DNA of 64,000 nt from assembly GCA_011939005.1 (NCBI GenBank), contig GCA_011939005.1_4858.1. One strand, given 5' to 3'. The position numbers and the translations under genes are program-made. The notes under the pieces were generated by a model that did no database searches, had not been told where the DNA came from, and was given only the letters and a program-made list of their open reading frames with translations. Of the stretch, positions 10,331 through 51,185 are shown in pieces; the stretch's first letter is position 1; each line of letters begins with the position of its first letter. This stretch comes from a phage.

Positions 10331-10365
10331 AGAAAAAAAGAGGGGCCGAAGCCCCATCTTTTTTA
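10331..10365. terminator. bidirectional intrinsic terminator
   Basis: GGGGC-CGAA-GCCCC hairpin flanked by A-run and T-run. Confidence 0.5.
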
Positions 10366-10944
10366 ACACGTCGCGCCAAGTTCCGAACAGGGATCACCAT
10401 CTTCCCAGTCGAAAGCTGACATGCGTGCCCAGTTAAGTTGAATATCCACTTTATCGATTCGACTCAGTCGTACTGCACGATCTTCATTGGTAGCCCATTG
10501 CCAAATCTTATCTTCGTCGTACTTCGTCGAAATGCCCGATGTTGCTTCGCGGAAGTGGTCATCGGTACGCATATACGCATTGCCTTTGAACACATCCAAC
10601 CGAGAAAAGCCGTTCTCATAACCAGTCGCCATACCGTCATTATACAACTTACGATATTCCGGCATGGCAACGAGGAATGGCTGTAAAGCAGCATTGGCGA
10701 ACTGGAATTCACCCAACTCTTCGATCTGTCTTACCATCTCTACCGCATCGCTATAACGTAATTTACGTGCGGTACTGAATGTTTCACGGAAACGCTCCAG
10801 TGAGATTAAGTCCTGACAATGTTCTTTTACACGGTCAACGAGATCGGGTGCCAGGCTAGACAGCGAAAACGATTCTTTGAATACGCTGAGTGCCCCGCTA
10901 CCTTCGGTCTGTTTCGTCCACACCGTGCTACCTTGTAGCCACAT
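10363..10944 (-). CDS. hypothetical protein (193 aa)
   Basis: ORF followed by terminator. Confidence 0.55.
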   Translation of the reverse strand: MWLQGSTVWTKQTEGSGALSVFKESFSLSSLAPDLVDRVKEHCQDLISLERFRETFSTARKLRYSDAVEMVRQIEELGEFQFANAALQPFLVAMPEYRKLYNDGMATGYENGFSRLDVFKGNAYMRTDDHFREATSGISTKYDEDKIWQWATNEDRAVRLSRIDKVDIQLNWARMSAFDWEDGDPCSELGATC

Positions 10945-11230: not shown

Positions 11231-12640
11231 CCTCCCTAACTTTCACTAGGGCACAGACCATACCTTAGCCATGAGCTTTCGCTTTTAGGCTCCTCCCCAC
11301 TTCGGTGCTATTCTAAGCACCTACGAGCATTTCAGCTCCGGTCGTTGAACGTTCCTCTTACGAGGCTTCGCTGCTGATTACCCATTGTTAAAACCCTTAG
11401 CAGTATTGTTTAGCATAGGTCATCTCATTACTTGTTTCCGACTTTCGTCTCCACATGGGCAAATGAGCTTTAGGGGTTCCCAGCAATTCAGGGAGATACA
11501 CATCAGAGGTTTCCCGTCTGATGGGGCAAGGCTATTCTGCTGTTAAATATTGAACTTCAAATTGTTTGTACTTTCCGGTTTGTGAGACTGCTTTGGCCAC
11601 AGTGTTTCTTTTCACACCAATCGCGTTTGAAAACTCTTGTAAAGAATTCCAAATGGTTTTGATGTTAGTGGTCGTATCAGTCACACGCACCATCGACGGT
11701 ACACGTTTTGGCATTTGTGATTGTGGTCTGGGTTTGCGGAGATCGATCATGTCAGTTATGGCAACATCGATATCCACCATGTACCACGCCTCATATCCAA
11801 ACTTAGTCAAATCGACGGAACCGCCGTTGAGATGGGAATAGATGAGGTGTGGTTTTATACCCACGTATTCGGCTGCTGCCGGTACAGACGAGAACAGGAA
11901 ATATGGTTCCTTACCAACTTTTCTGATGACCAGTCCTTTATTACCTGGTCCTGAGTTCTTACCAATAGAATTCTTGGTGAGAATCCAGTCGTCTTCCGGT
12001 ACCTTGACTTCAAACACATCATTTAGCGTGTATTGACGATTAAGCCCACGTGCGATCGAGCTTGAAACCAAGTGCCGATTAACGCCGATATACTCAGCCG
12101 CCTTAGTCATGCTACGGAACTGAACTATATCGCCGGTCTCGAGATTTCTGACATCGACAATAATGTTGTCAGTTCTTAGACCAGTATCGAAAGCATGATT
12201 AACATTTTCCTTTCGATAACACCACTCAAGGTTTACCACAGATGGATTACTCTTAACACCATCACGATGGTTAACCTCGTCACCACATTTATCCAGGAAC
12301 ACAGTCGCAACAATTCGATGTAAATGGGTTTCGCCTTTACAACCGCGCACTCCCAGGTATCCACTTTTGAGAATGAAGACTGGTAGCGGCGTGACCATAC
12401 CTTTTACTTTACAGTCGCCCAATGCATCAACAAAGAGATCACGATAGACTGGGTGTCTGTAATACCCCTTAAAAACATACGAGGGCTCTAAATCATCGCG
12501 TAGTTTCCTACTCAACTTTTCAATAATCACAATTTATTCCCTATTACCAGTCACCGACTAAGAATAAGGAATAGCAGAATAACACTTTTACCGTTAGCCA
12601 TCTTGATCACACGGTCAGAGATACGCAGCGAACACTGGTT
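11231..12640 (-). mobile_element. group I intron with embedded HNH homing endonuclease gene (boundaries approximate, within about 15 nt)
   Basis: Interrupts a beta-prime-like reading frame; 300-nt core (11231..11531) carries P-like AATTGCTGGGAA (11475..11489), Q-like AATCAGCAG (11371..11379) and R-like GTTCAACGAC (11341..11350) in canonical order on the sense strand; a G precedes the proposed 3' junction at 11231. Confidence 0.6.
11532..12530 (-). CDS. HNH homing endonuclease (intron-encoded)
   Basis: HNH core VNHRDGVKSNPSVVNLEW...NVNHA plus three repeated helix-turn-helix-like modules (AAEYIGVNRHLVSS, AAEYVGIKPHLIYS, SNAIGVKRNTVAKA); GTG start about 20 nt after the exon-readthrough stop. 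Confidence 0.75.
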   Translation of the reverse strand: MIIEKLSRKLRDDLEPSYVFKGYYRHPVYRDLFVDALGDCKVKGMVTPLPVFILKSGYLGVRGCKGETHLHRIVATVFLDKCGDEVNHRDGVKSNPSVVNLEWCYRKENVNHAFDTGLRTDNIIVDVRNLETGDIVQFRSMTKAAEYIGVNRHLVSSSIARGLNRQYTLNDVFEVKVPEDDWILTKNSIGKNSGPGNKGLVIRKVGKEPYFLFSSVPAAAEYVGIKPHLIYSHLNGGSVDLTKFGYEAWYMVDIDVAITDMIDLRKPRPQSQMPKRVPSMVRVTDTTTNIKTIWNSLQEFSNAIGVKRNTVAKAVSQTGKYKQFEVQYLTAE

Positions 12641-13957
12641 AACATCGGTAACAACTTCGTCGATGAACAGCGTCTGAATAGACAACTGTACCAGCGTTGG
12701 GTTACGTAGCGGTATGACCATGATCCCAAGACCGCCTGGGGATTCACGAATCAGTTCTTTAAAGATTTCGTCTACAAGCGGGTCATACTGCATTGCCGCT
12801 TTTGCGACGATACGTTCACACTGCCGTGACGAATAACCGCGTCGTAGCAGTTTGTTCTCGATGTGGGTCGACATCAACCCAACCATCCAACGCCATGGTG
12901 CTTTTAACTTCCAGGCATCGTGTGGTTCTGAGATAGGTGAGATGGTTGCACGACCACCGAACGGGATGTGGGTAGAACCCAATTTCGCACGATAGTCACC
13001 CGGTTTACCTTCCATAGACTCACGACGGAAGTCCATGTGGAAGTACGTTAGCTGACGGTTCGCCTTCAAAGCACGACTAATCAGAAAACGTGGTTCGATC
13101 GCTTTACGCCGCGTATAGAGCAACGCGATATTTTTCACCGCGTCAATAGCACCCGTGAACACTGGGTCTACCATGACACCACGACGACCTTCCTCAGTAA
13201 CGATAAGTTTAGAGGAGATTAGCGGTAAGTGTCTTGGGAAGAATGCATGGCGTTGCGTTTCGAATAGCTCCTTCCATTGTAAACGTAAGCGTTCACCTTC
13301 AGCGGCGTTATGCCGATTAGGTGCGAAGATTTCCTTCCAGGCTTCTGGCGTGGTAAGGATGTTAAAGATACTAACGTGGTTATCAACCAGATTGCGCAAG
13401 CCACGAACGAAACCATGTTCTTCCAATACACGTTTCACAGCATGTGCGCGTTTACCGTCTGGTTCTTCTATACGGTAATACGGGTCAATCATCCACATCA
13501 TCAAGTCATTACCGCGTTCGATAGTGACCTTGTTACGTTCAAACTTCTTCAACTTGCTATTAAAGAAAGCATTGAACATTGCCCAGAATCGTGGGTTGAC
13601 GAAGTTACCCATTTCATCGGGTGCACGTAACCAGACATCGGATTCAATTCGATGTTCAGTTACAACATAGCCACACGTCGGACACTTACAACCGAGATTG
13701 TAACGATGCGCGATCGGTGCCGGACAATCCAAACTACAAATCGGTGCAGAGTTCAGTTCTTCGTCAACGATTCTGTTCTGTACCATGCGATCGATAAGTT
13801 CAGCAACCTCGATCGCATCCCCGTTAACGGCGACATCGTTAATAATAGTGGGTGGTTTAATACCTTTGGCAGCAGCTTCTATTTGCAAATCGGACAAATA
13901 GTTATCCTGACTAACCAACCGGCCGGATATTCCGTAGAATTTTGGTACCTTTCTCAC
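12551..13957 (-). CDS. 5' exon of split RNA polymerase beta-prime-like N-terminal subunit (exon proper about 12641..13957; frame reads through into intron to stop at 12551)
   Basis: Zinc-finger-like CPAPIAHRYNLGCKCPTCG and LRNPTLVQLSIQTLF (compare beta-prime NRAPTLHRLGIQAFEP); ORF ends before the DFDGD motif. Confidence 0.65.
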   Translation of the reverse strand: MRKVPKFYGISGRLVSQDNYLSDLQIEAAAKGIKPPTIINDVAVNGDAIEVAELIDRMVQNRIVDEELNSAPICSLDCPAPIAHRYNLGCKCPTCGYVVTEHRIESDVWLRAPDEMGNFVNPRFWAMFNAFFNSKLKKFERNKVTIERGNDLMMWMIDPYYRIEEPDGKRAHAVKRVLEEHGFVRGLRNLVDNHVSIFNILTTPEAWKEIFAPNRHNAAEGERLRLQWKELFETQRHAFFPRHLPLISSKLIVTEEGRRGVMVDPVFTGAIDAVKNIALLYTRRKAIEPRFLISRALKANRQLTYFHMDFRRESMEGKPGDYRAKLGSTHIPFGGRATISPISEPHDAWKLKAPWRWMVGLMSTHIENKLLRRGYSSRQCERIVAKAAMQYDPLVDEIFKELIRESPGGLGIMVIPLRNPTLVQLSIQTLFIDEVVTDVNQCSLRISDRVIKMANGKSVILLFLILSR

Positions 13958-14039: not shown

Positions 14040-15893
14040 TTACAGTTTGAAGTTGCTCAGAGTCACGCCCAGACCGAAATCGGAACCGCTTGCAGACAGG
14101 CCGTTGCCAGACAGCGTGAAGTCTTCCCCACCGTTGTTGAAGAACAGAGAGGTCGCCATCGTGTTGTAGGCATTTACACCAGTCATAGACCAGGTGCAGT
14201 TGTTACGGACGAAGTCCAGCAGGCATTTACCGAAGATCGGGTTGATAGCCATATCCAGAGATTCACCGGTAGCTTGCGGTGCTTTGGATGCGAACAGAGA
14301 AGCGGCCAGTTTCAGCATGTAGATACGCTGTTGACGCTCGTTCAGTTCACGGTGGCTGTAGGACTGTGCGTTCAGGTAGCTATAGACGTCGTTCGCGTTA
14401 TCACCCAGTTTGGTAACAACGGAAATCAGGTCCATATCCTGGAAGCTACGTTTCTGTGCAGTACCGGTGTAAACACCGGAAACAGTCGGTACGGCTGCTT
14501 TCACGATGTGGCTGCAATGGATGGTACCATTGAAGGCATCGCCCAGCTGTGCTTTCAGTGCAGAAGCAAATACTGCAGTGAAGCTGGTCGCTGCAACAAC
14601 TTCGCCGTTCTGATCACGCGGGGACATGGAATTCAGAATAGCGAGCAGCTGTTTCAGAGAGTTGTCGTAACCGACCGCAATTTCAGACAGCAAAGTAGAC
14701 AGACCACCCAGGCCGTTACCGGCACGATGGCTAACTACCAGTGCTGCTTCACGCGGTGCGAACATATCCAGGCAACCTTCGATAGCTTCACGGCTACCGT
14801 CGATTTTGGATACATCAGGACGAGCGTCAGCACCCCAGGACAGGTATTCTGCCACACGGGAGAACTTGCGATCTTGTTTGTTCAGACGTTTCACAAACAG
14901 GTCACGCCAGCCACCGATTGCCGCGATTTCTGCAAATGCAGCCAGCAGCAGCAGTTGACGTTCATACGGTGCCATTGCACCTTCAGTTTGAGAATCGATC
15001 AGACTTACTACGATTTCAGCCTGCAGCTGTTTCAGGTCGTAGACGCCGTTAACGACAGGCTTCTGACCGGTGAAACGCATATTGACGAAACCGGTACCGG
15101 ATACACGCGGATACACCTGTACCTGATTGGTGTCCAGCAGAGTCGGAGTGGCGTCGGTTACGTTGCTTGGGCTGTGCTCAACGGTGATTGCGAAATCAGC
15201 ACGCTGTGCGTGGCCGTTAGCATCAACAACCGCACCATCTTCCAGCGGCATTACTGCGGCCTGATAACGGTCATGCTTACGCAGGTTCAGCGTACCCAGG
15301 TAGCCTGCGATACGACCGAAGATGCCCATCATCATCTGACCCATCAGAGTACGTGCCCACTCAGCATCCAGAACTTTACCCAGGTCTGGTACGGAGTTGA
15401 TGATCATGAAGTTCGCATTGGTCAGACCATGCGCTTCCATGATGTTTTTCTGTACTACTGCCAGCACGTCTTTGTTGAACAGTTCAGTGATGGTGTAGTA
15501 GTCTTCCTGGCCGTTGTTGGTAGTTTCTTTCAGACGCAGAGACTGACCGCGTTCAAAGAAGATGATACCGTACAGCCAGTGGCCCTGCCATTGGCCTGCG
15601 ACGTACGCCGCGGAACCCATTTCGTTACCCACGCCGACGATGGTGCCCCAGCGGAATGCGTTGAGGTATTCGTTGCTTTTCTTCAGCTCATCCAGGAGGT
15701 TGGTGAAGTGCATTGCATAGGTGCTGATGTTGCGGATGCCAAATGCGTTATCGAATTGGCTGACAGTAGAAGTACCCGGCACAGCAGTTTGCACTTTTAC
15801 AGTCTCGTTGCCCAGACCGCCCAGTGGTGCGGTGTCTTGAGTCTGAGTGTTGTTCTGCTGAGCGTTGTTGTTAGAGTCAACGATTTTTACCAT
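14040..15893 (-). CDS. hypothetical 617-aa protein, apparently monocistronic; candidate abundant protein (phage-nucleus shell protein or capsid protein; unverified)
   Basis: AAGGAA RBS; two motif copies upstream and a terminator downstream; low-complexity N-terminal (NNNAQQNNTQTQ) and C-terminal (GNGLSASGSDFGLG) tails around an ordered core. Confidence 0.7.
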   Translation of the reverse strand: MVKIVDSNNNAQQNNTQTQDTAPLGGLGNETVKVQTAVPGTSTVSQFDNAFGIRNISTYAMHFTNLLDELKKSNEYLNAFRWGTIVGVGNEMGSAAYVAGQWQGHWLYGIIFFERGQSLRLKETTNNGQEDYYTITELFNKDVLAVVQKNIMEAHGLTNANFMIINSVPDLGKVLDAEWARTLMGQMMMGIFGRIAGYLGTLNLRKHDRYQAAVMPLEDGAVVDANGHAQRADFAITVEHSPSNVTDATPTLLDTNQVQVYPRVSGTGFVNMRFTGQKPVVNGVYDLKQLQAEIVVSLIDSQTEGAMAPYERQLLLLAAFAEIAAIGGWRDLFVKRLNKQDRKFSRVAEYLSWGADARPDVSKIDGSREAIEGCLDMFAPREAALVVSHRAGNGLGGLSTLLSEIAVGYDNSLKQLLAILNSMSPRDQNGEVVAATSFTAVFASALKAQLGDAFNGTIHCSHIVKAAVPTVSGVYTGTAQKRSFQDMDLISVVTKLGDNANDVYSYLNAQSYSHRELNERQQRIYMLKLAASLFASKAPQATGESLDMAINPIFGKCLLDFVRNNCTWSMTGVNAYNTMATSLFFNNGGEDFTLSGNGLSASGSDFGLGVTLSNFKL

Positions 15894-18487: not shown

Positions 18488-20767
18488 TTACTCCTCCGCT
18501 TCTTCCCCATCTTCTTCCTCTCCATCACGTTCAGATTTCTTAACGTACTCACCGCTACCTAATTCTTCCTTGACGGAATCTACAGACTCACCGTAGTAAT
18601 CCGAAAGCAGACGAGTTCTGTTCTTGTCCATCATGAACACACCCAGACATTCCAAGATGTGATAGTAAGGTTCTACTGTGGAGAATGCGCTTCGACGTGT
18701 GTCTGCAGCATCAATCAGCTCCGGCGGAATACCGAAGTTTTCCACCAGGAACTCTGGCAGTATCAGAGTGCGATAGGTACGATAGTTGTTTTCTTCGAAC
18801 CACCGTGTTGCAGTGGTCTTAATCATCGGGTCTTTAATGTTTTCCAGCCACTCTTTAACGGCTGTTTTGTTCTCCAGGTTTACCGGAAGTTTCACGGCGT
18901 CATAAGGCGGTTCGTCCAGGTAGCCGTACTTCGGTCCAAAGATAGCGTTGTACATGCGGTGGTAGTGGTAGCTCTTTTCATCATCTTCAGAGTACGCACT
19001 ACGGTCTTTGACGTTGGTTGTTTTCAGGTAGCCTGCTTTACCAGCGCGAATAGAATCCACCACAACGTGCTCAATTGCAGCAACCTTTTCCAGCAGAGGC
19101 AGAATCTTAATCTTATCGCCGCGCGCTACAATCTCACAGAGTTCTTTAATCGTGCGTTTGAACTCTTTCATGACCACCGGAGGAATGTTCGACGTACGTA
19201 AAGACACGCCCTTAACTTCTAACTCAGGGTCAGACTTCAACTGCCCTTCCTGGCCAGTGATGATGGAGAAATAGTGTTTTGCTTTCGTGGTTAACGCAAA
19301 GGAGTCGAACTTAAATTCGTTCTTCATTGCGTACAAGAACAGACGCTCTTTCGCCACACCGATGTTCGCCGACATACTCGCCATCAGATGACGTAAGTGT
19401 TGGGTTGCGATATAAATCATCGCATCCGATACGCGCGTAGCTTCACGACCGTAATGTTGACCGGTATACCACTGTGCCCACCACTGTGCAGTCATCATCG
19501 TGGAGTCGGTATCAGATACCACACCAACACGACGAACTACGTCGGGCATCCTGGCAATGTTGATTGGCAGGTTTTTGGTGGTCAGGATGTTACGAATCAA
19601 ACATGCGTACTTACCGATGGTTTTCTGCAGATATACAGCTGAGCGAATCAGCTCTTTGTATTTTTCCTGCTTATCCCACGGTTCCGCTTTGTTCGTGTTT
19701 TCGTCTTTAAGTTTAACGTCAGAGAACGACTTACCTAACGGCACGATATCAGTACGGAACTGCGAGATAATAATCTGCATATCGCCGTCGATGGAGCGCT
19801 CGGCGGCGTCCCAATCTGTGATCTCGTCTTCCATCTCCTCAGCAATCAGCGCACCGATAAACCCACGCATGAATTCATCGTTGTATTTTGCCAAGTGATA
19901 GAAATCGCCCATGTAGACAAACGCAGCACGCACTAATGGGCTACAGTTACCTACGTAGTGGCGGATAAACTCCAGTCCTTCATCATTGCGGAAATAGAAG
20001 TCTGCAGAGTACGTAACCACTTCCATAACCTCGTCCACAGTTGGGTAGTGGAGGTTATAGAGTTCCATACACTTCTTGAACTCCGCAAAGTTAGTCAGTG
20101 TACCAATAGACAGTAAGTGATCGATAACACGGGACGGTGTATCGTAGTGACGATTACCACCCAGTAGACGTTCGTTGCCAGCGTTACCGAACGATGTAGC
20201 CGTACGGCAGGTTGACGTCAATACAGAGTGCGAAGACTGGTTAAAGATTACCGTGTACGGTGATGAGAAAGCACCAGACATCCCGTTGTTCAGCGTTTTA
20301 ACAGCATTCTGTTCGTTCTTTTTGTTAATACGTAAAACTTCGTTGCCTGCAGCACCGGCTGCATACATCTCTTTCTTAACAACCGCACGCTTACGCACGT
20401 TCTCTGCGGTAAATTCAGCAAGCTTAGAGCGCTTGACGTGTTCCGGCAAATAGAAAGTCAACGACGGTGCAGAAATGATCTGCTTATCAATCACTGTACG
20501 GAACAGTTTATCTACCGTGGTGTATTTTTCTTCGCGATCGCCGGTCTTTTGATTGCGCACCCACATCTTACACACGGGGAATTCGTGTACTAACTCACCA
20601 CCAGGTTGGAACATTTCTTCGACCTGCTGTCGACAGAACTCCAAAGAATATTTCCCGTTGGTGACGGTATGAATGTAGAGCGCCAGTTGTTCGTAGTACG
20701 CATCGATAACGTCAATGTCGCGATGATACTCGTCTTGACTAAGACGAAATGGTGAATTGTAGTCCAC
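18488..20767 (-). CDS. hypothetical 759-aa protein; weak family-B-polymerase-like motifs (speculative)
   Basis: KTLNNGMSGAF (compare motif B Kx3NSxYG) upstream of VVSDTDSTMM (compare motif C YGDTDS); acidic C-terminus; no exonuclease domain seen. Confidence 0.65.
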   Translation of the reverse strand: MDYNSPFRLSQDEYHRDIDVIDAYYEQLALYIHTVTNGKYSLEFCRQQVEEMFQPGGELVHEFPVCKMWVRNQKTGDREEKYTTVDKLFRTVIDKQIISAPSLTFYLPEHVKRSKLAEFTAENVRKRAVVKKEMYAAGAAGNEVLRINKKNEQNAVKTLNNGMSGAFSSPYTVIFNQSSHSVLTSTCRTATSFGNAGNERLLGGNRHYDTPSRVIDHLLSIGTLTNFAEFKKCMELYNLHYPTVDEVMEVVTYSADFYFRNDEGLEFIRHYVGNCSPLVRAAFVYMGDFYHLAKYNDEFMRGFIGALIAEEMEDEITDWDAAERSIDGDMQIIISQFRTDIVPLGKSFSDVKLKDENTNKAEPWDKQEKYKELIRSAVYLQKTIGKYACLIRNILTTKNLPINIARMPDVVRRVGVVSDTDSTMMTAQWWAQWYTGQHYGREATRVSDAMIYIATQHLRHLMASMSANIGVAKERLFLYAMKNEFKFDSFALTTKAKHYFSIITGQEGQLKSDPELEVKGVSLRTSNIPPVVMKEFKRTIKELCEIVARGDKIKILPLLEKVAAIEHVVVDSIRAGKAGYLKTTNVKDRSAYSEDDEKSYHYHRMYNAIFGPKYGYLDEPPYDAVKLPVNLENKTAVKEWLENIKDPMIKTTATRWFEENNYRTYRTLILPEFLVENFGIPPELIDAADTRRSAFSTVEPYYHILECLGVFMMDKNRTRLLSDYYGESVDSVKEELGSGEYVKKSERDGEEEDGEEAEE

Positions 20768-20814: not shown

Positions 20815-20853
20815 TGAAAAAAGAAAAAAAATAACCCACTCCGAAGAGTGGGC
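20815..20853 (-). terminator. intrinsic terminator
   Basis: CCCACTC-CGAA-GAGTGGG hairpin followed (minus sense) by a long U-run. Confidence 0.55.
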
Positions 20854-20858
20854 TTACT

Positions 20859-21269
20859 TTAACCGGCAATACTCTCAACGATTTCAAAATCGACGTCATT
20901 GAAACCATTGGCAGCCAGGGCACGTTTAAGGTCGTCAATCTCCTGTTTGTTATCCAGGGTGACGGTGAAGCGCACCTTCGTGTTTTCGATAATCTGAACA
21001 TCACGAATCCAGGCATCGGCAGCGACTTTTGGTTTGCCGTCAACACCTTTGAAAATCAGATACGTGTATTTGTTCACGTTATCTTCTGGCTGAGAAACAA
21101 TGGAAGAGTAGATATTCTTCTGCTCCGCCATCACATCCATATAACTTTTGGCCATTTCATAGCCAACGCCGGTTGCCAGAATAATTACACGCGTCTCTTG
21201 CCCTTTCAAAGGGGTGTCGTAAACAATGTTAACTTTTTGCCCAGCGACCAGTGTGCGTAAATCGAACAT
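20859..21269 (-). CDS. hypothetical protein (136 aa)
   Basis: ORF followed by terminator. Confidence 0.55.
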   Translation of the reverse strand: MFDLRTLVAGQKVNIVYDTPLKGQETRVIILATGVGYEMAKSYMDVMAEQKNIYSSIVSQPEDNVNKYTYLIFKGVDGKPKVAADAWIRDVQIIENTKVRFTVTLDNKQEIDDLKRALAANGFNDVDFEIVESIAG

Positions 21270-25010: not shown

Positions 25011-25853
25011 TTGTCCTACGAGCTTCATAGGAGCCTTAGAATGAATGTTATCGACTACTGCCTGCGTAAAATCAGACAGCATATCCCTGCCCCGATTCTA
25101 CAGGCGGCTTTTGTTCCAGAAAACCTCAAGTTACTGGGAATTGCAAGCTCTGTAGATAACGAAATTCAACAACGCGTTATTCGTGAAATTCTGGTCCCTG
25201 AAATCTCCAGAATGGGGCAGTATCAAGAAGTAGATTTGCAAGGTGTTCCTTGGGATAACGACACGCAAGATTATTTCAGTCGCGTGTATTATCTCGACGA
25301 CATCAAAACAGGTGGTCGCCCAATTCTGGACGCCCATATCTCTGTAACACCTGTTGCCGGACAGGCGTACACCATGCCACCCGCGGGTTCGTATCTGGAC
25401 GGTGCAACCTCTGGCGTACTGGCGTCCACTCAACAAGTGGTTGATAGTCAATCCGCGATGCCGCGTATCGCCTCACCAGAAGTTGAAGTGCTCGGTCCGA
25501 ATACCATTCGTATCAAAGACCCAGGCATGTTCGTTTACTCTACCAAACTCGTGGTGAAGTACGAACTGTCCCAGGAGATGAACGAAATCAAACCAGCATT
25601 CTATCCGGTTGTAGGTGAGCTGGCAGTCATGGCTGTTAAGCAATATATCTACAACACCATGATCTTCGACATGGATTCCGGTAAACTGGAAAATGGTATG
25701 GAGTTCGGTGCCTTCAGAAACGTTATTGAAGGTTACTCGGACGCCGGTCAAATGTTCGAAGACACCTTGCCGAAAATGCAACGTTGCCTGGTCCACAACG
25801 ACAACATCGGAAACCGTTGGAACTACATGAACGGTGGTCGCTTCAAGTCGTAA
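25011..25853 (+). CDS. hypothetical protein (probable start ATG 25041)
   Basis: TAGGAG RBS 7 nt before ATG at 25041 (MNVIDYCLRK...); lone plus-strand gene ending at a bidirectional terminator. Confidence 0.6.
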   Translation: MSYELHRSLRMNVIDYCLRKIRQHIPAPILQAAFVPENLKLLGIASSVDNEIQQRVIREILVPEISRMGQYQEVDLQGVPWDNDTQDYFSRVYYLDDIKTGGRPILDAHISVTPVAGQAYTMPPAGSYLDGATSGVLASTQQVVDSQSAMPRIASPEVEVLGPNTIRIKDPGMFVYSTKLVVKYELSQEMNEIKPAFYPVVGELAVMAVKQYIYNTMIFDMDSGKLENGMEFGAFRNVIEGYSDAGQMFEDTLPKMQRCLVHNDNIGNRWNYMNGGRFKS

Positions 25854-40951: not shown

Positions 40952-43465
40952 TTAACCCTTGATTATCAGATACTGATTAAGCTGCACTTCGCCATTCAGA
41001 TAACGTTCATTGACGCGGTCTAAGAAAGCAAAGCCAAGTTCGTTGATTTCTACCGTTTCGTACTTCACATGCGGATGCAGTTTCACAAACGCTTTATCGT
41101 AACCGATATAGGCCGGGTCAAACGGCAGGAGGTCTTTATAACGCTCCATGATGTCATCCAGCTGTGACGTCGAGATACGATACTCCGGATCGTCTTCCCG
41201 CAGAATCAGAATACCTTGCAAGTAGTCCCACAAGATTTTGTTCAGGGTTGGCGAATAGAGGTGATACAGATACGGCAACGGTACCGGGTTAACCGGCGGA
41301 GGTGTCGGGAACCAGTTAGACAGGTAAGCCTCGACGCGTGTGTCCAAATCACGGGCAGTGTCGCGCAAGTCGTACGTATCGCCGCTTACCAACGTCCGCA
41401 ACGGAATAGTTGGATCGTCGACCGAGTATGGGAACCCGTCTTGTACGATGTCGACACCTACAGTGTTGTCTTCACGGAACACGACTTCGTCACGCAATAG
41501 CAGTGAACCACCACCCACGACACGAATCACTTTGTCGTCACGGCAATCAAACTGGCTGTTATTAGACAGCAGTCCGTTTGACACGAAACCATGTTTAGGA
41601 ATACGGAGTTCACCGGTCACGCCACGACAACGCACTGAGACTTTATTTGTATCCCCGTCCGCCATCCACGCTTTACAAACCACCACAATTTCCGGCCAGC
41701 GGGTGTGGTAATCGATACCGTGCACCAGTGGGTGGTTGTTCAACCACACTTCGACCGTTTCCATTGGTAACCACAGCGTGCGCTGCTGCCCGTCTTGGTT
41801 GCGTGCTACAATCGGAATACGTATCTGACCTTCCGACACCTTAACATCCACTTCGAAGAACAGATGGAAGTCGTCGTAAATCACTGTCGGGTGACGTCGT
41901 GTCCGATCTACGGTCCAGGTGATTTTATTTCCGTCGCGAGTATAATCCGTTCCTTCCTCGGCTTTGTAGTAGTCGTTGGTTGGAACTTCCCCGATGACCA
42001 TTCGAATCCACAACCCAACGTTTGAACCTGGCTCAATTTCAAAGTCGGGAGCGTTGTCAACAATCTTCACCGCATCCGAGACTTCACCCGCAATAGCCTC
42101 GATGATTCGTGCTTCTGGATTGCGAGGGATGTAAACATCGTAGCCTGCATTACGGTGATGTTCTAACAGCAACCCATCGGCATCGTACTCGTATACAGTT
42201 GACAGCGTTGCCAGTAAGTCGGGCAAAGTACCGCGATAGCCACCGGATGTAAGTTCCAGACGCTGTGGAGTGTCGGCACTGTAACGTGCGGCGGCATTGT
42301 AGCCGTACGCATCAGTGCAGAGATCGCGTGTGATGTTCCGGAGTTTGGCTGCCGCTAACCGATTCGCTGCCGATTCCTCGAGCGCTGCTGCGGTCCACTC
42401 TGGTACGTTGGAGTTTGCCCCCACCATCGCACCGATGATCTGCTCGTCACTAAGACGATAGAGGTCGTGCGTGTGGGTGGAGTTATACAGTGGCTTCAGG
42501 TCAAGGAAATCGTCACGTATCAATAAACGAATCGTTAGTTCGTCGATATCATTCATTGGGTTAGTGAAAGCGGTGCGGTATTTCGAAATCCGCATCGACG
42601 GAATCGATAGATCGTTCCACGTCAATTGTCGTACGGCCATATGGCGGTGACGATGGTAGTAACGTCCCTCACCTTTCCACAACAACTGAATTTCACAGTC
42701 GTTGTTGAAAATCCAAATGCCGTCCCCTTTTGGAATGTGCAGCAGGTATTTTCGTGTTTGATCAAGCGTTGAGTAGAACGTTTGCAAATCCCCACAACGG
42801 TATTCAATCACACGACGAATACGTCCATCGACACGAATTTCAACATCATCCCATGCTTTGATATCCGCGGGCTTAGGATTAGCAATCATCTTTCCGTTTA
42901 CCCAGAAATCGACATAGCCGATTTTCTGGCCTTTCAACAGATTATAACGGTCTAAGACGATCTGGATCTGTTGTGGGTTCGGCGGATTATACGGTTCGAT
43001 GAATGTCGGTTTAACAACAGGAGCGTTTTCGCCGCCATCATTACCAGCATAAATGCGTAGATAACATGGTGTGTCGTCTAACCACTTGTAGCGTTCCGTT
43101 TGTGGAATCGCCATGTAAATCTGACCAGAGAGTGTCCGCCAGAAATACACAGAGTTCGACGGGATAATTGTCCCATCTTCGTTGTACACCTGCATCCACG
43201 CATGGAAGTTATTTACACACGTAGTAAGTTTCTTCCAGCGCTCAGGAGGGATACTCAAGTTGCCGTAGTTGAGGTGGAGCTTGTCAATTACAAACGCGTG
43301 CCACCACCCCTCGCCCGGTAAAGGAATCGGATTACGCCCGTGCTTGAAAAACCCGATCGCTCCGGTCTTTTCAGTTAATCGAAAAGGCGCAATGTTCAAC
43401 ACCCCATCGAGGTACGGACGCTGCCACGCATTTTTAACGGCGTGAGCGACCAGCCAGTTCTCCAT
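40952..43465 (-). CDS. hypothetical protein (837 aa; possible virion protein)
   Basis: Long ORF, tightly packed with neighbours. Confidence 0.65.
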   Translation of the reverse strand: MENWLVAHAVKNAWQRPYLDGVLNIAPFRLTEKTGAIGFFKHGRNPIPLPGEGWWHAFVIDKLHLNYGNLSIPPERWKKLTTCVNNFHAWMQVYNEDGTIIPSNSVYFWRTLSGQIYMAIPQTERYKWLDDTPCYLRIYAGNDGGENAPVVKPTFIEPYNPPNPQQIQIVLDRYNLLKGQKIGYVDFWVNGKMIANPKPADIKAWDDVEIRVDGRIRRVIEYRCGDLQTFYSTLDQTRKYLLHIPKGDGIWIFNNDCEIQLLWKGEGRYYHRHRHMAVRQLTWNDLSIPSMRISKYRTAFTNPMNDIDELTIRLLIRDDFLDLKPLYNSTHTHDLYRLSDEQIIGAMVGANSNVPEWTAAALEESAANRLAAAKLRNITRDLCTDAYGYNAAARYSADTPQRLELTSGGYRGTLPDLLATLSTVYEYDADGLLLEHHRNAGYDVYIPRNPEARIIEAIAGEVSDAVKIVDNAPDFEIEPGSNVGLWIRMVIGEVPTNDYYKAEEGTDYTRDGNKITWTVDRTRRHPTVIYDDFHLFFEVDVKVSEGQIRIPIVARNQDGQQRTLWLPMETVEVWLNNHPLVHGIDYHTRWPEIVVVCKAWMADGDTNKVSVRCRGVTGELRIPKHGFVSNGLLSNNSQFDCRDDKVIRVVGGGSLLLRDEVVFREDNTVGVDIVQDGFPYSVDDPTIPLRTLVSGDTYDLRDTARDLDTRVEAYLSNWFPTPPPVNPVPLPYLYHLYSPTLNKILWDYLQGILILREDDPEYRISTSQLDDIMERYKDLLPFDPAYIGYDKAFVKLHPHVKYETVEINELGFAFLDRVNERYLNGEVQLNQYLIIKG

Positions 43466-43475
43466 AGTGGGCCTC

Positions 43476-44381
43476 TTACTTGATGTTCAGTGGTTTGGTG
43501 TTTTGATTCATCAGAAGGTTGTATGTGAATTCAAACTTATCGCGTTTCTTAGCGGTGTCTGACTTCTTCACAATCCCACCTAACCGACTGCGGTTAAACA
43601 TGTTATTATCCAGACAAGCCTTAATCATAACGAAGAGACTAGGCGGATATTCGATGGCGCTGGTAGCGAGTTGTTTTTCATAACTCACCCCGAAGAAGCT
43701 GGTATTCAACATCTGCTGCAGAGACAGAATGCTCAGGTCACGCACCCGCGGAGTGATATCTGCAGCCTGCACCATTTCGACGAATTCTGCGATATTACGC
43801 GGGAAAAGATATTCTGTGTGGCCTGTCACTGATTCAAACAGTTCCGCAGGTAAGCCTAATTGTTGCTCCAGCATCTGCTGCAAACGTAAAGCTTTCACAT
43901 CATCTTCGACGTGATTATAGAACTGTCCCACAGAGAACAATGCAGCCAACGCTTTGATTTGCCCACTTTGATATGGAGCAAGTGCAAACGTGTGGGTAAT
44001 CGCATCCGACACCCATTTGCTGAAAATCTCATGGTGGTAGGGCATCTGTGCCATCAGTGCAGCAAGCTTACCATTACTCCGTTTCCACACCAATTCCCAG
44101 CGAGCCTGGTCGAGACGCAATGCGTGTTCGACTGGGTTTCGTATTTTTAGCTCGTTGGTCTTATCCAGCGTGGTAAACGTGGCTGCGTATACATAAACGT
44201 CGTCGCCGATAACAATCGGCAAAGGAAACGGTTTTACATCAGCGGTCTCAACAACGTAATGAACTTCATCGGACTGTGAGACAGTTTGGTTAAGTTTACG
44301 GGCTAATTCCAGGTCTGCCTTGGTGCGAGTAAGGTCAAGTGCATTAAAGGGATTACCGCTGTAAGCGTTTTCGAGTGCCAT
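43476..44381 (-). CDS. hypothetical protein (start revised to ATG 44381)
   Basis: Track start 44543 would overlap the divergent sheath-like gene; AAGGA 9 nt upstream of ATG 44381 (MALENAYSGNPF...). Confidence 0.55.
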   Translation of the reverse strand: MALENAYSGNPFNALDLTRTKADLELARKLNQTVSQSDEVHYVVETADVKPFPLPIVIGDDVYVYAATFTTLDKTNELKIRNPVEHALRLDQARWELVWKRSNGKLAALMAQMPYHHEIFSKWVSDAITHTFALAPYQSGQIKALAALFSVGQFYNHVEDDVKALRLQQMLEQQLGLPAELFESVTGHTEYLFPRNIAEFVEMVQAADITPRVRDLSILSLQQMLNTSFFGVSYEKQLATSAIEYPPSLFVMIKACLDNNMFNRSRLGGIVKKSDTAKKRDKFEFTYNLLMNQNTKPLNIK

Positions 44382-44438
44382 GAGTATGATCCTTAGTATG
44401 ACCATCAGGTCTTTAAGACGAATATATGGAGACGTTCC

Positions 44439-46484
44439 ATGACTTTTATTCCACGAAACGGCGCGCCGTTGAATAACAAGCAAGGTTGGCAGGATAACTC
44501 TGTCCCCGAGCTTGTGCGTACCCCTACGGGTGACGCAATTCATAAGCCGCTGATCTTCACCTTTGCCGCGCGCGGGGTAGACAACGAGGCGTTCCCGTTA
44601 ACCGGGGATAATGCACTGTCTCTGCTTGGTCGCAATGTCTTTGACTTGCGAGGCCCCTACGCGACGTTCAACACGCCCTATCAGGCGATGTTCAACGCTA
44701 ACGCAAACGAGTGTATGTATCAGCGCTTGATCCCTGAAGATGCGAAAACCGCAAGTGTTCGCGTATTCGCCGACGTACTCGAAACGAAAGTTCCGTCCTA
44801 CGAACGCGACAGCAACGGGATCGTTCAGTACGACAACTCGGGCAAGCCCAAGATCAAAGAACAAGTTGACGGTTTGGTAATCGTCTTCCGTTCTGTCGTA
44901 ATCGACGAAACTACCCCGGCCATCGGCGCAGGTGTGGTTATCGAGGGGACGATGACTGGCGAAGGCGGCACGAAATCGAAGCTGTATCCGTTGTTCGATA
45001 TCGCAGGCCCGTATGCGGGTGCTGACGTCAACGGTTTCGGTTTCAAACTGATCCCACTCAGCGAGAAATCCAGCCCGGCTCTGACCTCCTCCTATCAAAA
45101 TGAAGTCGGTGGTCGTGTTTACACCCTGCAATGGTTCGAAACCCTGGCAGGTGTGACTTCTCCGGTAGTGTGGAAAACTCTCACTGGCATGAGTAGCATC
45201 AATTTTAGCTTTAAGCCCGATGCATACTATCAGCCGATGAGAACGCAACTCGACTTCGAAGTTGTTGTTGCGGATGCATATCGTCAGACGATGCCTGACA
45301 TTGGCGAGCTGCCAGATTATGGTCCTTTCGAGCAGTTCTATCTGTATCGCGAGAACCTGGAAACTGTACTGGGCTTGGCTCAGGCCGCTATCACAACTGA
45401 TGCGCCTGCTGACCCGTATATGGTTGACATCTTTGGCGGCTATGATTTACTGGGCCAGCCTTACGATGGTCTTCAGGTAAACCCGGCTACTGAAACCGGT
45501 AAAGTTGTGTTCTCCGCATCCAACATCCACTACCTGCAAGGTGGTAGCGATGGTACCATGAACAACGACGTTTACGACGAACTCGTTCGCCGTGAAATGC
45601 TGCTGTTCCCGGATGGCGGTAAAGTCCGTTACGACAACGAGCTGAAATACTCGCTGGGTTGTTTCTGGGACTCTGGCTTTAGCTTCGATACTAAAGCTGC
45701 GCTCGTGAACTTCATCGGTCGTTCACGTAACACCTTCTTGACGCTGGCGACTCACGTTTACAGCCAAGGCCGTAACGATGAGCAGACAGAAGAAAGTGCA
45801 AAAATCGCCCTGATCGAATTGATCACAGCGGTACCGGAATCTGCCTATTACGGCACTCCGGCTGCACGTGGTATGGTCACCGGCCAATCGGCGTTCATCA
45901 AGAACTCTTCCTACAAGAAGCCTGTTCCGATGAACTACTCCCTGGCGAACTTCTTCTCGAAGTACCTGGGTGCAGGCGACGGTCGTGCAAAACCGGCTTA
46001 TCGTTTCAGCCGTGGCGAACTGACGATTATCGAAGATCTGACTGACCTGAGTATGCCGTGGAAAGGCAACGAAGTGTATGCGTCTGACTGGGATGTGTCG
46101 CTGATCACTGCCCGTTCCTACGACTACTATCGCTTGTTCATTCCGGCGATTCAGTCAATCTACAGCGAAGATCGTTCTGTACTGAACAACGCCCTGTTCA
46201 ACTTCATGATGACCTACGTCTATCGTGTTTCCGACCGTGTATGGGCGGACATGTCTGGCGAAGCGGCCATGACAGATGATGAACGTGCGAAGATGATTGA
46301 GAACAAAATTATCGAACGTCTGGAAGGCCGTCTCGATAACGTTGCTGTCGTCACTCCGAAGGCGTACTTCACTGCAGACGATAAATCCAATGGTTACTCT
46401 GTGACGCTGGACCTGATCGCTGAAGGCGGTGTGCTGCTCACCCAGTTCAACACCACTATCAAAGTTTACCGTCGGGAGAGCTAA
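44439..46484 (+). CDS. contractile tail sheath-like protein (by size and gene context)
   Basis: 681-aa ORF with GGAG RBS, followed 3 nt later by a 291-aa ORF and a strong terminator, resembling a sheath/tube pair; no motif-level confirmation. Confidence 0.4.
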   Translation: MTFIPRNGAPLNNKQGWQDNSVPELVRTPTGDAIHKPLIFTFAARGVDNEAFPLTGDNALSLLGRNVFDLRGPYATFNTPYQAMFNANANECMYQRLIPEDAKTASVRVFADVLETKVPSYERDSNGIVQYDNSGKPKIKEQVDGLVIVFRSVVIDETTPAIGAGVVIEGTMTGEGGTKSKLYPLFDIAGPYAGADVNGFGFKLIPLSEKSSPALTSSYQNEVGGRVYTLQWFETLAGVTSPVVWKTLTGMSSINFSFKPDAYYQPMRTQLDFEVVVADAYRQTMPDIGELPDYGPFEQFYLYRENLETVLGLAQAAITTDAPADPYMVDIFGGYDLLGQPYDGLQVNPATETGKVVFSASNIHYLQGGSDGTMNNDVYDELVRREMLLFPDGGKVRYDNELKYSLGCFWDSGFSFDTKAALVNFIGRSRNTFLTLATHVYSQGRNDEQTEESAKIALIELITAVPESAYYGTPAARGMVTGQSAFIKNSSYKKPVPMNYSLANFFSKYLGAGDGRAKPAYRFSRGELTIIEDLTDLSMPWKGNEVYASDWDVSLITARSYDYYRLFIPAIQSIYSEDRSVLNNALFNFMMTYVYRVSDRVWADMSGEAAMTDDERAKMIENKIIERLEGRLDNVAVVTPKAYFTADDKSNGYSVTLDLIAEGGVLLTQFNTTIKVYRRES

Positions 46485-46487
46485 TAG

Positions 46488-47363
46488 ATGGCAATCAAAG
46501 ATCGTCTCATTTTGCCTGATCAGGGTCTGCACGTCGACGGCGGCCAGTACGATATGGTCAACGCGTTCTCCTCGGGCCAAAACGGCCCGGTTGGACAGGT
46601 TGGCAAGTTCGTTACTAACGCCTCTCGTCTGCGTCGTAACGTCATTGCGCGCGTCATGGAATTCCCTCGTTGGGTGGATTACATGCCGAACCCACAGATG
46701 TGGCGTCAGGCTATCAAGTCCTTTATCGAGGTTCACTCCGAGATTACTGGCCTGGATAAAACCCTGAGCCATGCGGCTGTTGAAACTCAGCAGGGTCGTA
46801 ACAACCGTACCCAGTATGAAGCTGGTCTGGTAACGGAAGCACTGTCCTCTGTTACCTTCACCACCCCGGATAAACTCGGGAAGGTGTACCAAAACATGCT
46901 GTGGGCGTGGCTGGTTTACGGTGTTTGTGATCCCCAGACTGGTCACCCGGGCCTGGCCGCAATCAACCCGAACGTTCCTGACCACCTGCCGGATATGTAC
47001 AGCATGACCGTGCTGTTCATCGAGCCAGATGCGTATCAGCGTAAACCGCAGAATGCGTGGTGGTTAACGAACATGATTCCGGAAACCGCTGGCCAGGATA
47101 TCGGTGAGCGTGAAACCAACACCGGTCCGCAGATTAACGAACTGTCAATCGCCTTTACCTCCCAGCAATGGACAGGTTGGGGTCCGATGCAGGCCGCTGC
47201 GAAAGAGCTGGATCGTATGAAGCTGTACGGTCTGCGTCCTTACGAACGCAAACTGTGGCTTACTCCGTCTCAGCAGACCGACGGTATCAACCCGGACGTC
47301 AACGCAACCCCAGGTGGTTACAACTCTGTCTCCGACGAGCAGATGGCCAACCAGATGCGCTAA
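46488..47363 (+). CDS. tail tube-like protein (by context)
   Basis: 291-aa ORF directly after the sheath-like gene; GGGAGAG RBS. Confidence 0.4.
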   Translation: MAIKDRLILPDQGLHVDGGQYDMVNAFSSGQNGPVGQVGKFVTNASRLRRNVIARVMEFPRWVDYMPNPQMWRQAIKSFIEVHSEITGLDKTLSHAAVETQQGRNNRTQYEAGLVTEALSSVTFTTPDKLGKVYQNMLWAWLVYGVCDPQTGHPGLAAINPNVPDHLPDMYSMTVLFIEPDAYQRKPQNAWWLTNMIPETAGQDIGERETNTGPQINELSIAFTSQQWTGWGPMQAAAKELDRMKLYGLRPYERKLWLTPSQQTDGINPDVNATPGGYNSVSDEQMANQMR

Positions 47364-50583: not shown

Positions 50584-51132
50584 TTAGACTTGCAGTAGTG
50601 TCCCCGAGTGAGTAATCGGGTCATTGTAGAACGCTTCACACTGGAGGCAAATGCCATCAATGTTCGGTTCTTCAGTTCGCGACCATATTGCCGCGCCACC
50701 TTGCAAAATCCATTCTCGACAGTTACGACCATAATCGTCGACAAGCAAATTACCTCGCGAGGCGTAAGCTTTCTTCTGCCCTGAACTTTCGGTGACGATG
50801 ACTTTGTCAGCTGGCACCCCAAAGTGCTTCATGAACCATCGTTGTTTTGAATCCACAACCAATTGGTGGTCGTAGTGATCTTCTGACCCAGAGGTGAGTA
50901 TTGCCCAACTGTCGCAAAGTCTATCTACCGTTTCCAGGATTCGCTCTACACCCTCAATTGGTTCGAGTTTGTAAAACAAGTCAGGATCGTTCTGATACAT
51001 CGAACGAACCAAACTACGACGGCGGAGTTCAGGTAATGCGTTAAACTCTTTAATCGTCATTCCGGGAAAATGTGTGGATAAAACGTATTTACGCCAGCGT
51101 GCAAAAACGCCATCGCTATCCAGATAAAACAT
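50584..51132 (-). CDS. HAD-superfamily hydrolase (nucleotidase/phosphatase-like); start revised to ATG 51132
   Basis: MFYLDSDGVF (HAD motif I DxDG) and C-terminal LLVDDYG (motif IV); AAGGA 9 nt upstream of ATG 51132. Confidence 0.5.
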   Translation of the reverse strand: MFYLDSDGVFARWRKYVLSTHFPGMTIKEFNALPELRRRSLVRSMYQNDPDLFYKLEPIEGVERILETVDRLCDSWAILTSGSEDHYDHQLVVDSKQRWFMKHFGVPADKVIVTESSGQKKAYASRGNLLVDDYGRNCREWILQGGAAIWSRTEEPNIDGICLQCEAFYNDPITHSGTLLQV

Positions 51133-51185
51133 CTTCTTGTCCTTATTTTGTTCCCCAACACATGAAACCAACGTCATGTAAAAAA

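Follow-up and report, generated by a model that had tools for sequence, protein, structure and literature searches.

The question raised by this locus is whether a 759-aa open reading frame (ORF), read in a first-pass annotation as a tentative family-B DNA polymerase (PolB) with the motifs KTLNNGMSG and DTDS, encodes such an enzyme, and where the remainder of its active site would reside. The whole stretch of DNA analysed (the window, 64,000 nt) was 97-98% identical to SPN3US and JN03 of the genus Seoulvirus. Pfam domains found in it included PhiKZ_VTX, phiKZ_gp29PR and Peptidase_S80, and it contains genes whose counterparts in relatives are annotated as RNAP beta subunits. Judged by these sequences, the phage belongs to the phiKZ-like jumbo phages of group 1 and is of the SPN3US type (Seoulvirus), and the earlier mention of phiKZ-like phages was apt. 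A 617-aa ORF at 14040-15893 might be a chimallin gene by synteny with the relative L008 (BLASTP not significant, E = 0.51; no Pfam match).

The ORF listing and its translation confirmed a 759-aa frame containing both motifs. The gene and its flanking elements are as follows.

18488-20767, minus strand: predicted coding sequence of the C-terminal subunit (fingers, most of the palm, thumb) of a phiKZ-type divergent family-B DNA polymerase, 759 aa
20774-20779, minus strand: Shine-Dalgarno-like AAGGGG, 6 nt upstream of the polymerase GTG start
20823-20854, minus strand: intrinsic-terminator-like hairpin (9-bp stem, 4-nt loop, then a T8 run) between the SH3DP and polymerase genes
20859-21269, minus strand: 136-aa SH3DP-family gene upstream of the polymerase (PF20287, E = 3.2e-35)

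Translation starts at a GTG codon, and the stop codon occupies 18488-18490. Conservation among the homologs begins at about residue 5, the SPN3US RefSeq polymerase has the identical start, and an identical 759-aa protein is present in the database (entry P0001); on these comparisons the GTG start appears credible. The order SH3DP then polymerase was also found in L008, a relative at 36% identity. PF20287 is defined as the 'SH3 fold domain associated with phage DNA polymerases', and an SH3-fold gene upstream of and beside the polymerase was described previously (Iyer et al., 2021; PMC7824862). The SH3DP protein is a candidate third, accessory subunit of the polymerase.

Family membership was clear. 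The Pfam model PF20286, 'Divergent Family B DNA polymerase', matched the 759-aa protein with E = 2.9e-284 and a score of 945.2 bits (gathering cut-off, 25.7), aligning residues 11-725 with profile positions 3-705 of 705; PHROG 2927, 'DNA polymerase', matched with E = 0. The canonical model PF00136 stayed below its gathering threshold (17.9 bits versus a cut-off of 23, E = 0.0014, residues 94-189 only), and searching the PDB with the sequence profile yielded weak matches at best (Pol zeta, E = 0.018; RB69, E = 0.27). Structure prediction, one of the checks proposed with the first-pass annotation, returned a PolB-like fold: the closest structures to the AF2 model were RB69 and T4 gp43, and the palm, fingers and thumb folds were all present. 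The family-B assignment was thus upheld. The protein was 99.5% identical to YP_009153312.1, the exemplar used by Iyer et al. (2021; PMC7824862), who described PF20286 (divDNApol) as the divergent PolB found in group 1 (phiKZ-like) jumbo phages; the family is the same as the PolB cluster named 'PhiKZ' by Kazlauskas et al. (2020; PMC7544198). RefSeq annotates the gene as "DNA polymerase". Because the family is known, annotated and provided with its own Pfam model, the finding is an ordinary one, and the gene by itself adds no new biology.

The following segments of the chain bear on its catalytic role.

20516-20767, minus strand: ~84 N-terminal residues forming two helices and a beta-hairpin; F7, Y14 and R16 are invariant, Y24 near-invariant
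20375-20389, minus strand: first finger helix with R127 and K131, both invariant, aligning with T4 R479 and K483
20273-20299, minus strand: motif B, KTLNNGMSG (K157-G165), aligning with T4 K557-ILINSLY-G565
19568-20155, minus strand: all-helical insert of ~200 aa (residues ~205-400) between motifs B and C
19499-19516, minus strand: motif C, SDTDST (S418-T423), invariant, with D419 and D421 corresponding to T4 D618 and D620, the metal-binding aspartates
19196-19324, minus strand: C-terminal palm and thumb-base motifs, from the T4 alignment and PHROG 262/1918
18491-18535, minus strand: acidic C-terminal tail SERDGEEEDGEEAEE, predicted to be disordered and lineage-specific

To place these motifs, we used profile-profile alignment (hhalign). 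When the family was aligned with the single T4 gp43 sequence or with the whole T4-like profile, only the part from motif C to the thumb was aligned, with DTDS on T4 D618-S621; the fingers required a sub-alignment run, and global mode aligned nothing. In the sub-alignment, K157, N161 and G165 fell on T4 K557, N561 and G565, with the invariant S164 at T4 Y564. Motifs B and C align with T4 K557-G565 and D618-S621 in the right order, as had been claimed. The placement of R127 and K131 was obtained from a local hhalign run and the Pol zeta alignment; their T4 counterparts R479 and K483 are equivalent to RB69 R482 and K486, which contact the triphosphate. Toward the C-terminus, where PHROG 262 and 1918 matched residues 416-544, K482-N-E484 aligned with T4 D681-R-E683, K497-H-Y499 with T4 K703-R-Y705 (the 'KKRY' motif), and K519-G-V...R524 with T4 I-M-G-M-E-T-Q. 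Forty homologs, with identities as low as 35%, all retained K157, N160, N161, S164, G165 and S418-T423. Among full-length homologs, the K..NN..SG pattern was found in 117 of 117 and SDTDST in 116 of 117, so that the DTDS aspartates passed the conservation check suggested earlier. Motifs B and C are far beyond what chance would give. The distant homologs terminate at about residue 725.

The chain is incomplete in two respects, both of which had been noted from the sequence. No exonuclease domain (Exo I-III) was detected in the 759-aa chain by Pfam or in the predicted structure, and no conserved motif A (DxxSLYPS) was present, the N-terminal region having no invariant acidic residue; both elements were located on a 594-aa partner protein. 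A Pfam scan of 40 window ORFs likewise gave no exonuclease domain. Among the best 150 of 1,494 family representatives, none carried a fused N-terminal 3'-5' exonuclease, and 146 showed a single-stretch match beginning within the first ~36 residues. Just one of these 150, P0382, has a long N-terminal extension, a 5'-3' exonuclease/RNase H domain; P0392 has a 70-residue N-terminal extension without a convincing domain. Two candidates for motif A within the chain were rejected. The N-terminal RDIDVIDAYY has D19...Y24 at the DxxSLY spacing, and its D19 is often N, G or S, with D17 variable. The invariant D288, considered as a displaced motif A, sits at a helix-helix junction within the insert (pLDDT ~96-97), and motif A was found on the partner.

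The partner, YP_009153338.1 of SPN3US, carries Exo I-III and motif A. Its gene is located at 41224-43008 in SPN3US and at 43003-44784 in JN03, and by synteny it would lie ~10 kb past the left edge of the window; given relatives 97-98% identical, this genome presumably encodes it as well. No Pfam model covers the protein, and its label is mostly "hypothetical protein". The Exo I-III residues D152/E154, D266 and Y395/D399 were invariant in 33 homologs with identities down to 30%, as were D506, D508, Y513 and P514 of motif A (D-x-D-x4-Y-P). An hhalign comparison with the T4-like PolB profile (probability 98.8%, E = 4.7e-17) covered T4 56-431, ended on motif A and aligned D508...Y513-P514 with T4 D408...Y413-P414. 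Because HMMER alone gave a weak match to the motif A segment (domain E = 0.17), support for this motif comes from its invariance together with the hhalign context. The polymerase and partner genes lie ~27-29 kb apart on opposite strands. The polymerase was found in 301 phage records and the partner in 295; their counts agreed for seven genera out of the eight that appear in both tables; in Salmonella they were 28 and 26, respectively. Since motif A resides on the exonuclease protein, the split runs through the palm and not between whole domains. The presence of Exo I-III and motif A on a partner that co-occurs with the polymerase suggests that the active site is most likely a two-chain one, and by these sequence criteria the two proteins most likely form an obligate heterodimer.

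The AF2 monomer model showed irregularities around the catalytic centre. The DTD segment was not a canonical beta-hairpin (by DSSP, D419 starts a helix), and residues 164-180 had pLDDT below 50 though they are highly conserved. Both features could fit a missing strand from the partner, or they could be plain model error. The N-terminal ~84 residues, for which T4 gp43 has no counterpart, may serve as a docking module for the motif-A-bearing chain.

Because of the insert between motifs B and C, K157 and D419 are 262 aa apart, versus 61 aa in T4. The insert contains the invariant residues R206, H207, Y208, D288 and N296 and the near-invariant H291. Its helices (211-395) were modelled with pLDDT mostly of 86-98, one block having 79, and its fold matched only generic helical bundles. 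Iyer et al. (2021; PMC7824862) described a long multi-helical insert on the N-terminal side of motif C; they also reported that phiKZ-like phages have no sliding clamp and that group 1 jumbo phages have neither DnaG nor AEP primases, and they raised the possibility of a 'primpol'. In a more far-reaching proposal, the insert would act as a second functional site that other polymerases lack, either a clamp substitute or a priming part, the split palm would form an obligate two-chain active site, and SH3DP would be a possible third subunit. As a whole this combination seems doubtful to us. Both the second-site insert and the two-chain active site were raised speculatively by the same authors (Iyer et al., 2021; PMC7824862). 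If it were true, priming by the insert would account for the missing primase of phiKZ-like phages.

Three other readings of the protein were weighed. The 759-aa chain might be self-sufficient, with a degenerate N-terminal motif A (R16-D17-I-D19...Y24) and the 594-aa protein as a loosely associated proofreading exonuclease. R16-D17-I-D19 is the only topologically plausible motif A site in the chain: residues 12-19 sit where strand 1 would precede a 'SLYPS'-like helix (helix 20-35), an acidic residue was present at 17 or 19 in 40 of 40 aligned homologs, Y24 is near-invariant, and Iyer et al. (2021; PMC7824862) called the exonuclease a possible stand-alone associate. However, D17 and D19 both vary, and an acidic residue is missing from both positions in at least 4 of 117 homologs (with YVRNINV, YRRNFQI and YKRTINP, for example); the N-terminal region gave no confident hhalign alignment to motif A, whereas the invariant D-x-D-x4-Y-P of the partner falls on that of T4 in the high-probability alignment above. 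We therefore judged self-sufficiency unlikely. The reading of the protein as an inactive PolB relic, with a structural or regulatory task in place of catalysis, draws on the same lack of a motif A aspartate in the chain; the dNTP- and metal-binding residues are strictly invariant in homologs down to 35% identity and a partner with an invariant motif A co-occurs, which makes such a relic scarcely credible.

A primase-polymerase, of AEP-like type or in the form of a PolB with added priming activity, was the alternative fold named with the first-pass annotation, and it would account for the absent primase. The lack of DnaG and AEP primases noted above and an insert with its own invariant polar residues speak in its favour. 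Against it, Pfam and PHROG gave no AEP or primase family match, the fold matched PolB only, with no AEP fold among the matches and nothing beyond helical bundles for the insert, no features of AEP-type primase-polymerases (PrimPol) were detected, and the sequence has no sign of de novo initiation; priming would be an added activity rather than an alternative identity. This fold alternative was not borne out, and we consider the reading very improbable.

We thus favour, with a probability of about 85%, the reading that this ORF is the gene for the C-terminal, catalytic chain of a replicative phiKZ-type PolB, with the 594-aa partner completing the active site in trans. The proposal draws on homology, motif conservation, fold, gene neighbourhood and the co-occurrence of both genes, from which we infer the physical association of the two proteins, the composite active site and the replicative function. 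In this enzyme, R127 and K131 of the fingers, with K157 and N161 of motif B, would bind the incoming dNTP, D419 and D421 of motif C would hold the catalytic metals, and K497 and Y499 of the KKRY-like motif would contact the primer terminus. The same chain would also supply the thumb and the family-specific ~200-aa helical insert. The partner would contribute the PolB N-terminal domain, the 3'-5' exonuclease (Exo I-III) for proofreading and, near its C-terminus, motif A, with D508 as a metal ligand and Y513 as the sugar steric gate. The active site of the heterodimer would be assembled from both chains, and SH3DP might join them as a third subunit.

A split polymerase in phiKZ-like phages was reportedly first described by Cornelissen et al. 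in 2012. Thomas et al. (2016) credit the 'split subunit DNA polymerase' of phiKZ to an earlier paper. What is added here to the account of Iyer et al. (2021) is that the separate exonuclease protein also carries motif A, which that earlier paper, as cited there, may already state. The polymerase homolog RAY gp220 localises with the DNA of the phage inside the phage nucleus; our search of the accessible literature found no biochemical or structural data on a phiKZ-type polymerase. An enzyme of this type would replicate genomes of 200-300 kb in the phage nucleus, seemingly with neither a sliding clamp nor a recognisable primase, and its catalytic carboxylates would be shared between two polypeptides. 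For annotators, a caution follows: PF20286 alone denotes an incomplete polymerase.

Compared with known systems, the 759-aa protein is a member of divDNApol (PF20286), sharing the DTD, the long helical insert before motif C, the upstream SH3-fold gene and the absence of a fused exonuclease, and in itself shows no difference from that family. T4 and RB69 gp43, the canonical family-B replicases (PF00136 + PF03104), are single chains, whereas the phiKZ type consists of two; sequence identity between them is ~10-12%. The phiKZ type has Ser in place of the motif B Tyr (T4 Y564, RB69 Y567), an extra insert of ~200 aa between motifs B and C, ~84 extra N-terminal residues and, on the partner, ~65 extra residues after motif A. 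The split gp43A/gp43B of T4-like Acinetobacter phages (for example Ac42, P0210) is likewise a two-polypeptide family-B replicase; its first chain bears the exonuclease and motif A and its second chain motifs B and C, as in the phiKZ type. The breaks differ in position. Ac42 gp43A aligns with T4 2-500 and ends at ~500, past the first finger helix, which carries R479/K483; the phiKZ-type break lies at ~T4 431-450, before the CSPNG hairpin, and therefore the finger residues R127/K131 are on the C-terminal chain. From these alignments, the phiKZ-type split looks like an event independent of the T4-like one.

The first-pass annotation had read the 759-aa protein as polymerase-like from two motifs resembling motifs B and C of family-B DNA polymerases (PolBs). 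The ORF was present as claimed, and the features used below are as follows.

18488-20767, minus strand: polymerase ORF, 759 aa, GTG start (ORF listing)
20273-20299, minus strand: KTLNNGMSG, residues 157-165 (translation)
19880-19930, minus strand: insert residues 280-296, context RAAFVYxGDLYHLAKYN
19499-19516, minus strand: SDTDST, residues 418-423 (translation)
20823-20854: terminator-like hairpin plus T8, between the upstream gene and the polymerase GTG start
20859-21269, minus strand: SH3DP gene (SH3 fold domain associated with phage DNA polymerases), 136 aa, directly upstream of the polymerase (PF20287, E=3.2e-35)

The sequence AAGGGG lies 6 nt before the GTG. This long start is credible because homologs are conserved from residue ~5, database protein P0001 is an identical 759 aa, and the SPN3US RefSeq annotation agrees with it. 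The annotated CDS of Salmonella phage SPLA1a (20154-22280 of that record) begins instead at an internal ATG, M52; this start is probably mis-called, since it removes 51 conserved N-terminal residues.

Pfam analysis indicated that PF20286, "Divergent Family B DNA polymerase", covers the whole length of the protein (E=2.9e-284, 945 bits versus a cut-off of 25.7), while canonical PF00136 matched weakly at residues 94-189 (E=0.0014); PHROG 2927, "DNA polymerase", matched with E=0. At the DNA level, the window shares 98.4% identity with Salmonella phage JN03 and 97.0% with SPN3US (genus Seoulvirus). A tblastn search found polymerase matches in 301 phage genomes, with ≥99% identity in SPN3US-like Salmonella phages and 26-37% in phiKZ, OBP, EL-like and other jumbo phages. 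The SPN3US ortholog, YP_009153312.1 (755/759 identical, 99.5%), is annotated "DNA polymerase" and is the example accession in the definition of the divergent PolB of group 1 (phiKZ-like) jumbo phages (Iyer et al., 2021; PMC7824862). A "PhiKZ" cluster of divergent PolBs has also been listed, with the authors' own earlier identification cited (Kazlauskas et al., 2020; PMC7544198), and a decade passed between the sequencing of phiKZ and the identification of its "split subunit DNA polymerase" (Thomas et al., 2016). Thus, the window polymerase is a member of an already described and already annotated family.

We aligned 40 polymerase homologs, down to 35% identity. K157, N160, N161, S164 and G165 were invariant, as were S418, D419, T420, D421, S422 and T423; among full-length homologs, K..NN..SG occurred in 117/117 and SDTDST in 116/117, so that the DTDS aspartates proved conserved. 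Profile-profile alignment with a T4-like PolB profile placed DTDS on T4 D618-S621, K482-N-E484 on D681-R-E683, K497-H-Y499 on K703-R-Y705 of the KKRY motif, and K519-G-V on the next conserved strand. When the N-terminal third was aligned locally with hhalign (E about 9e-4), R127, K131, K157, N161, S164 and G165 fell on T4 gp43 R479, K483, K557, N561, Y564 and G565, respectively, and the family profile independently matched the corresponding region of Pol zeta. All polymerase residues aligned to T4 motif positions are invariant across the family, and we take them to be the dNTP-contacting finger residues and metal-binding aspartates established by RB69/T4 structural work. Canonical PolBs carry a motif-B tyrosine (T4 Y564, RB69 Y567) that sits beneath the nascent base pair and helps determine fidelity, whereas the phiKZ-type family has an invariant serine, S164 (20276-20278, minus strand).

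The AlphaFold2 monomer, predicted with the 40-homolog alignment, had a mean pLDDT of 84.7 and a pTM of 0.80. The top 50 Foldseek matches in the PDB were all RB69 or T4 gp43 (probability 0.99-1.00, E about 2e-4), with low TM scores of about 0.23; the prediction thus gave a related fold rather than an unrelated one. Together, PF20286, the invariant motifs and the gp43 matches supported the family-B reading. K157 and D419 are 262 residues apart, versus 61 in T4, and the extra ~200 residues between motifs B and C were modelled as helices (pLDDT mostly 86-98, one block 79), corresponding to the "unusually long multi-helical insert" of Iyer et al. (2021). The insert has invariant polar residues of its own, R206, H207, Y208, D288 and N296, a pattern that suggests a second functional surface. 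Residues 164-180 had pLDDT below 50 although highly conserved, and the DTD segment was not modelled as a hairpin; both fit a missing partner strand, but could also be model error.

The 759-aa chain lacks motif A and an exonuclease, as had been noted from the sequence, and both are present on a separately encoded protein. A scan of the SPN3US annotation revealed a second "DNA polymerase", YP_009153338.1 (594 aa; NC_027402.1, 41224-43008), in which a Pfam scan found no match. This partner includes YDVETN, WNHQFDI and YNMMD, and near its C-terminus DADLTQAYPSATNMMNQSRET, the T4 counterpart being SFDLTSLYPSIIRQVNISPET. Across 33 partner homologs, down to 30% identity, the invariant residues included D152 and E154 of Exo I, D266 of Exo II, Y395 and D399 of Exo III, D506, D508, Y513 and P514 of motif A, and N521 and T526. 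By hhalign, this alignment matched the T4-like profile with 98.8% probability (E=4.7e-17), over T4 56-431, with motif A at the end of the match; HMMER alone detected the Exo III region (E=3.4e-8), with the motif A segment collinear but weak. The partner was found in 295 phage records and the polymerase in 301; counts agreed in 7 of the 8 genera common to both tables (Salmonella, 28 polymerases versus 26 partners). Precomputed domains were absent from 93 of the 94 partner homologs P0241-P0334, and 'hypothetical protein' is the annotation of most copies. No exonuclease was found among the 40 window ORFs scanned with Pfam. The JN03 partner matches the SPN3US protein at every residue (100% identity), and its gene is on the strand opposite the polymerase gene, about 29 kb away; by synteny, this spacing would place the partner gene about 10 kb past the window's left edge, hence outside the window. 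The explicit placing of motif A on the partner is our sole modest addition, and may already be in papers of 2011-2012.

The evidence best supports a family-B replicase made of two chains. In this scheme, the motif A aspartate and the steric-gate tyrosine sit on the first strand and helix of the palm, which the partner would contribute along with the N-terminal domain and the proofreading exonuclease; the fingers, thumb, insert, KKRY and the rest of the palm, including motif C, would come from the window protein, and both chains would be needed for catalysis. The ~84 N-terminal polymerase residues (F7, Y14 and R16 invariant) and ~65 partner residues after motif A (E530 and N555 invariant) have no T4 counterpart and are obvious interface candidates. 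That the 759-aa chain is self-sufficient, with a degenerate motif A at its N-terminus, is improbable: R16-D17-I-D19...Y24 sits in the expected place, just before helix 20-35, but both aspartates vary among homologs, at least four of which lack any acidic residue at this site. Neither family nor fold searches supported the primase-polymerase fold raised as an alternative; priming as an additional activity is conceivable. The reading as a catalytically dead relic is contradicted, since the catalytic residues are strictly invariant.

Among the best 150 of 1,494 family representatives, 146 matched in one stretch starting within the first ~36 residues, leaving no space for a fused exonuclease. The P0392 match begins at residue 70, and the segment before it holds no convincing domain; P0393 and P0394 matched in two stretches. 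Rare metagenomic fusions occur: P0466 has a DUF4326 domain at the C-terminal end, and P0382, the clear exception, has a 5'-3' exonuclease/T4 RNase H domain at the polymerase N-terminus, consistent with a part in lagging-strand replication. The window polymerase ends in an acidic tail, SERDGEEEDGEEAEE (residues 745-759; 18491-18535, minus strand), predicted to be disordered. It occurs only in close Seoulvirus and Erwinia-phage relatives, distant homologs stopping at about residue 725, and might be a partner-binding tail. The SH3DP-polymerase gene order recurs in a relative at 36% identity, and SH3DP has been suggested as a polymerase subunit (Iyer et al., 2021). In Erwinia phage RAY, the polymerase homolog localises to the phage nucleus, with DNA.

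Other genes in the window were as follows.

11532-12530, minus strand: HNH_3 plus NUMOD1 ORF (homing-endonuclease type), 332 aa, between 12551-13957 and 10363-10944
14040-15893, minus strand: 617-aa ORF, two genes downstream of the polymerase
25011-25853, plus strand: DUF7484
43476-44543, minus strand: PhiKZ vertex-binding gp28-like
44439-46484, plus strand: phiKZ gp29PR-like
46488-47363, plus strand: tail tube protein
50584-51177, minus strand: NT5C-like 5'-nucleotidase
52173-52976, minus strand: Peptidase_S80 (prohead protease)

The 36%-identity relative has chimallin, the phage-nucleus shell protein, at the position of the 617-aa ORF; BLASTP between the two was not significant (E=0.51), and Pfam found nothing in the ORF. 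The HNH_3/NUMOD1 ORF separates an RNA polymerase beta-subunit gene from the next gene. Of 43 related phage records, only two share this segment, those of Proteus phage 7 and Salmonella phage SaP7 (99% each); alignments to the rest break in two around it, which gives it the look of a mobile insertion beside the phage RNA polymerase genes.

The SPFM15 polymerase copy (P0094) has 20-aa blocks in reverse order, partner entries from SPFM records combined high HMMER scores with BLASTP coverage of only 4-11%, and megablast matches to some of these records split into 38-40 pieces. The pattern suggests that the order of 60-nt sequence lines is reversed in the deposited records, LR535901 and others (Salmonella phages SPFM1, 5, 6, 7, 10, 12, 15 and 20; proteins P0094, P0279, P0280, P0282, P0290, P0292 and P0293), a database artefact rather than biology.

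In T4-like Acinetobacter phages, gp43 is likewise split. Ac42 gp43A aligns to T4 residues 2-500, placing the break after the first finger helix, whereas the phiKZ-type break maps to about T4 431-450, leaving R127 and K131 on the C-terminal chain. The two splits thus follow the same principle at different sites, and are presumably of independent origin.
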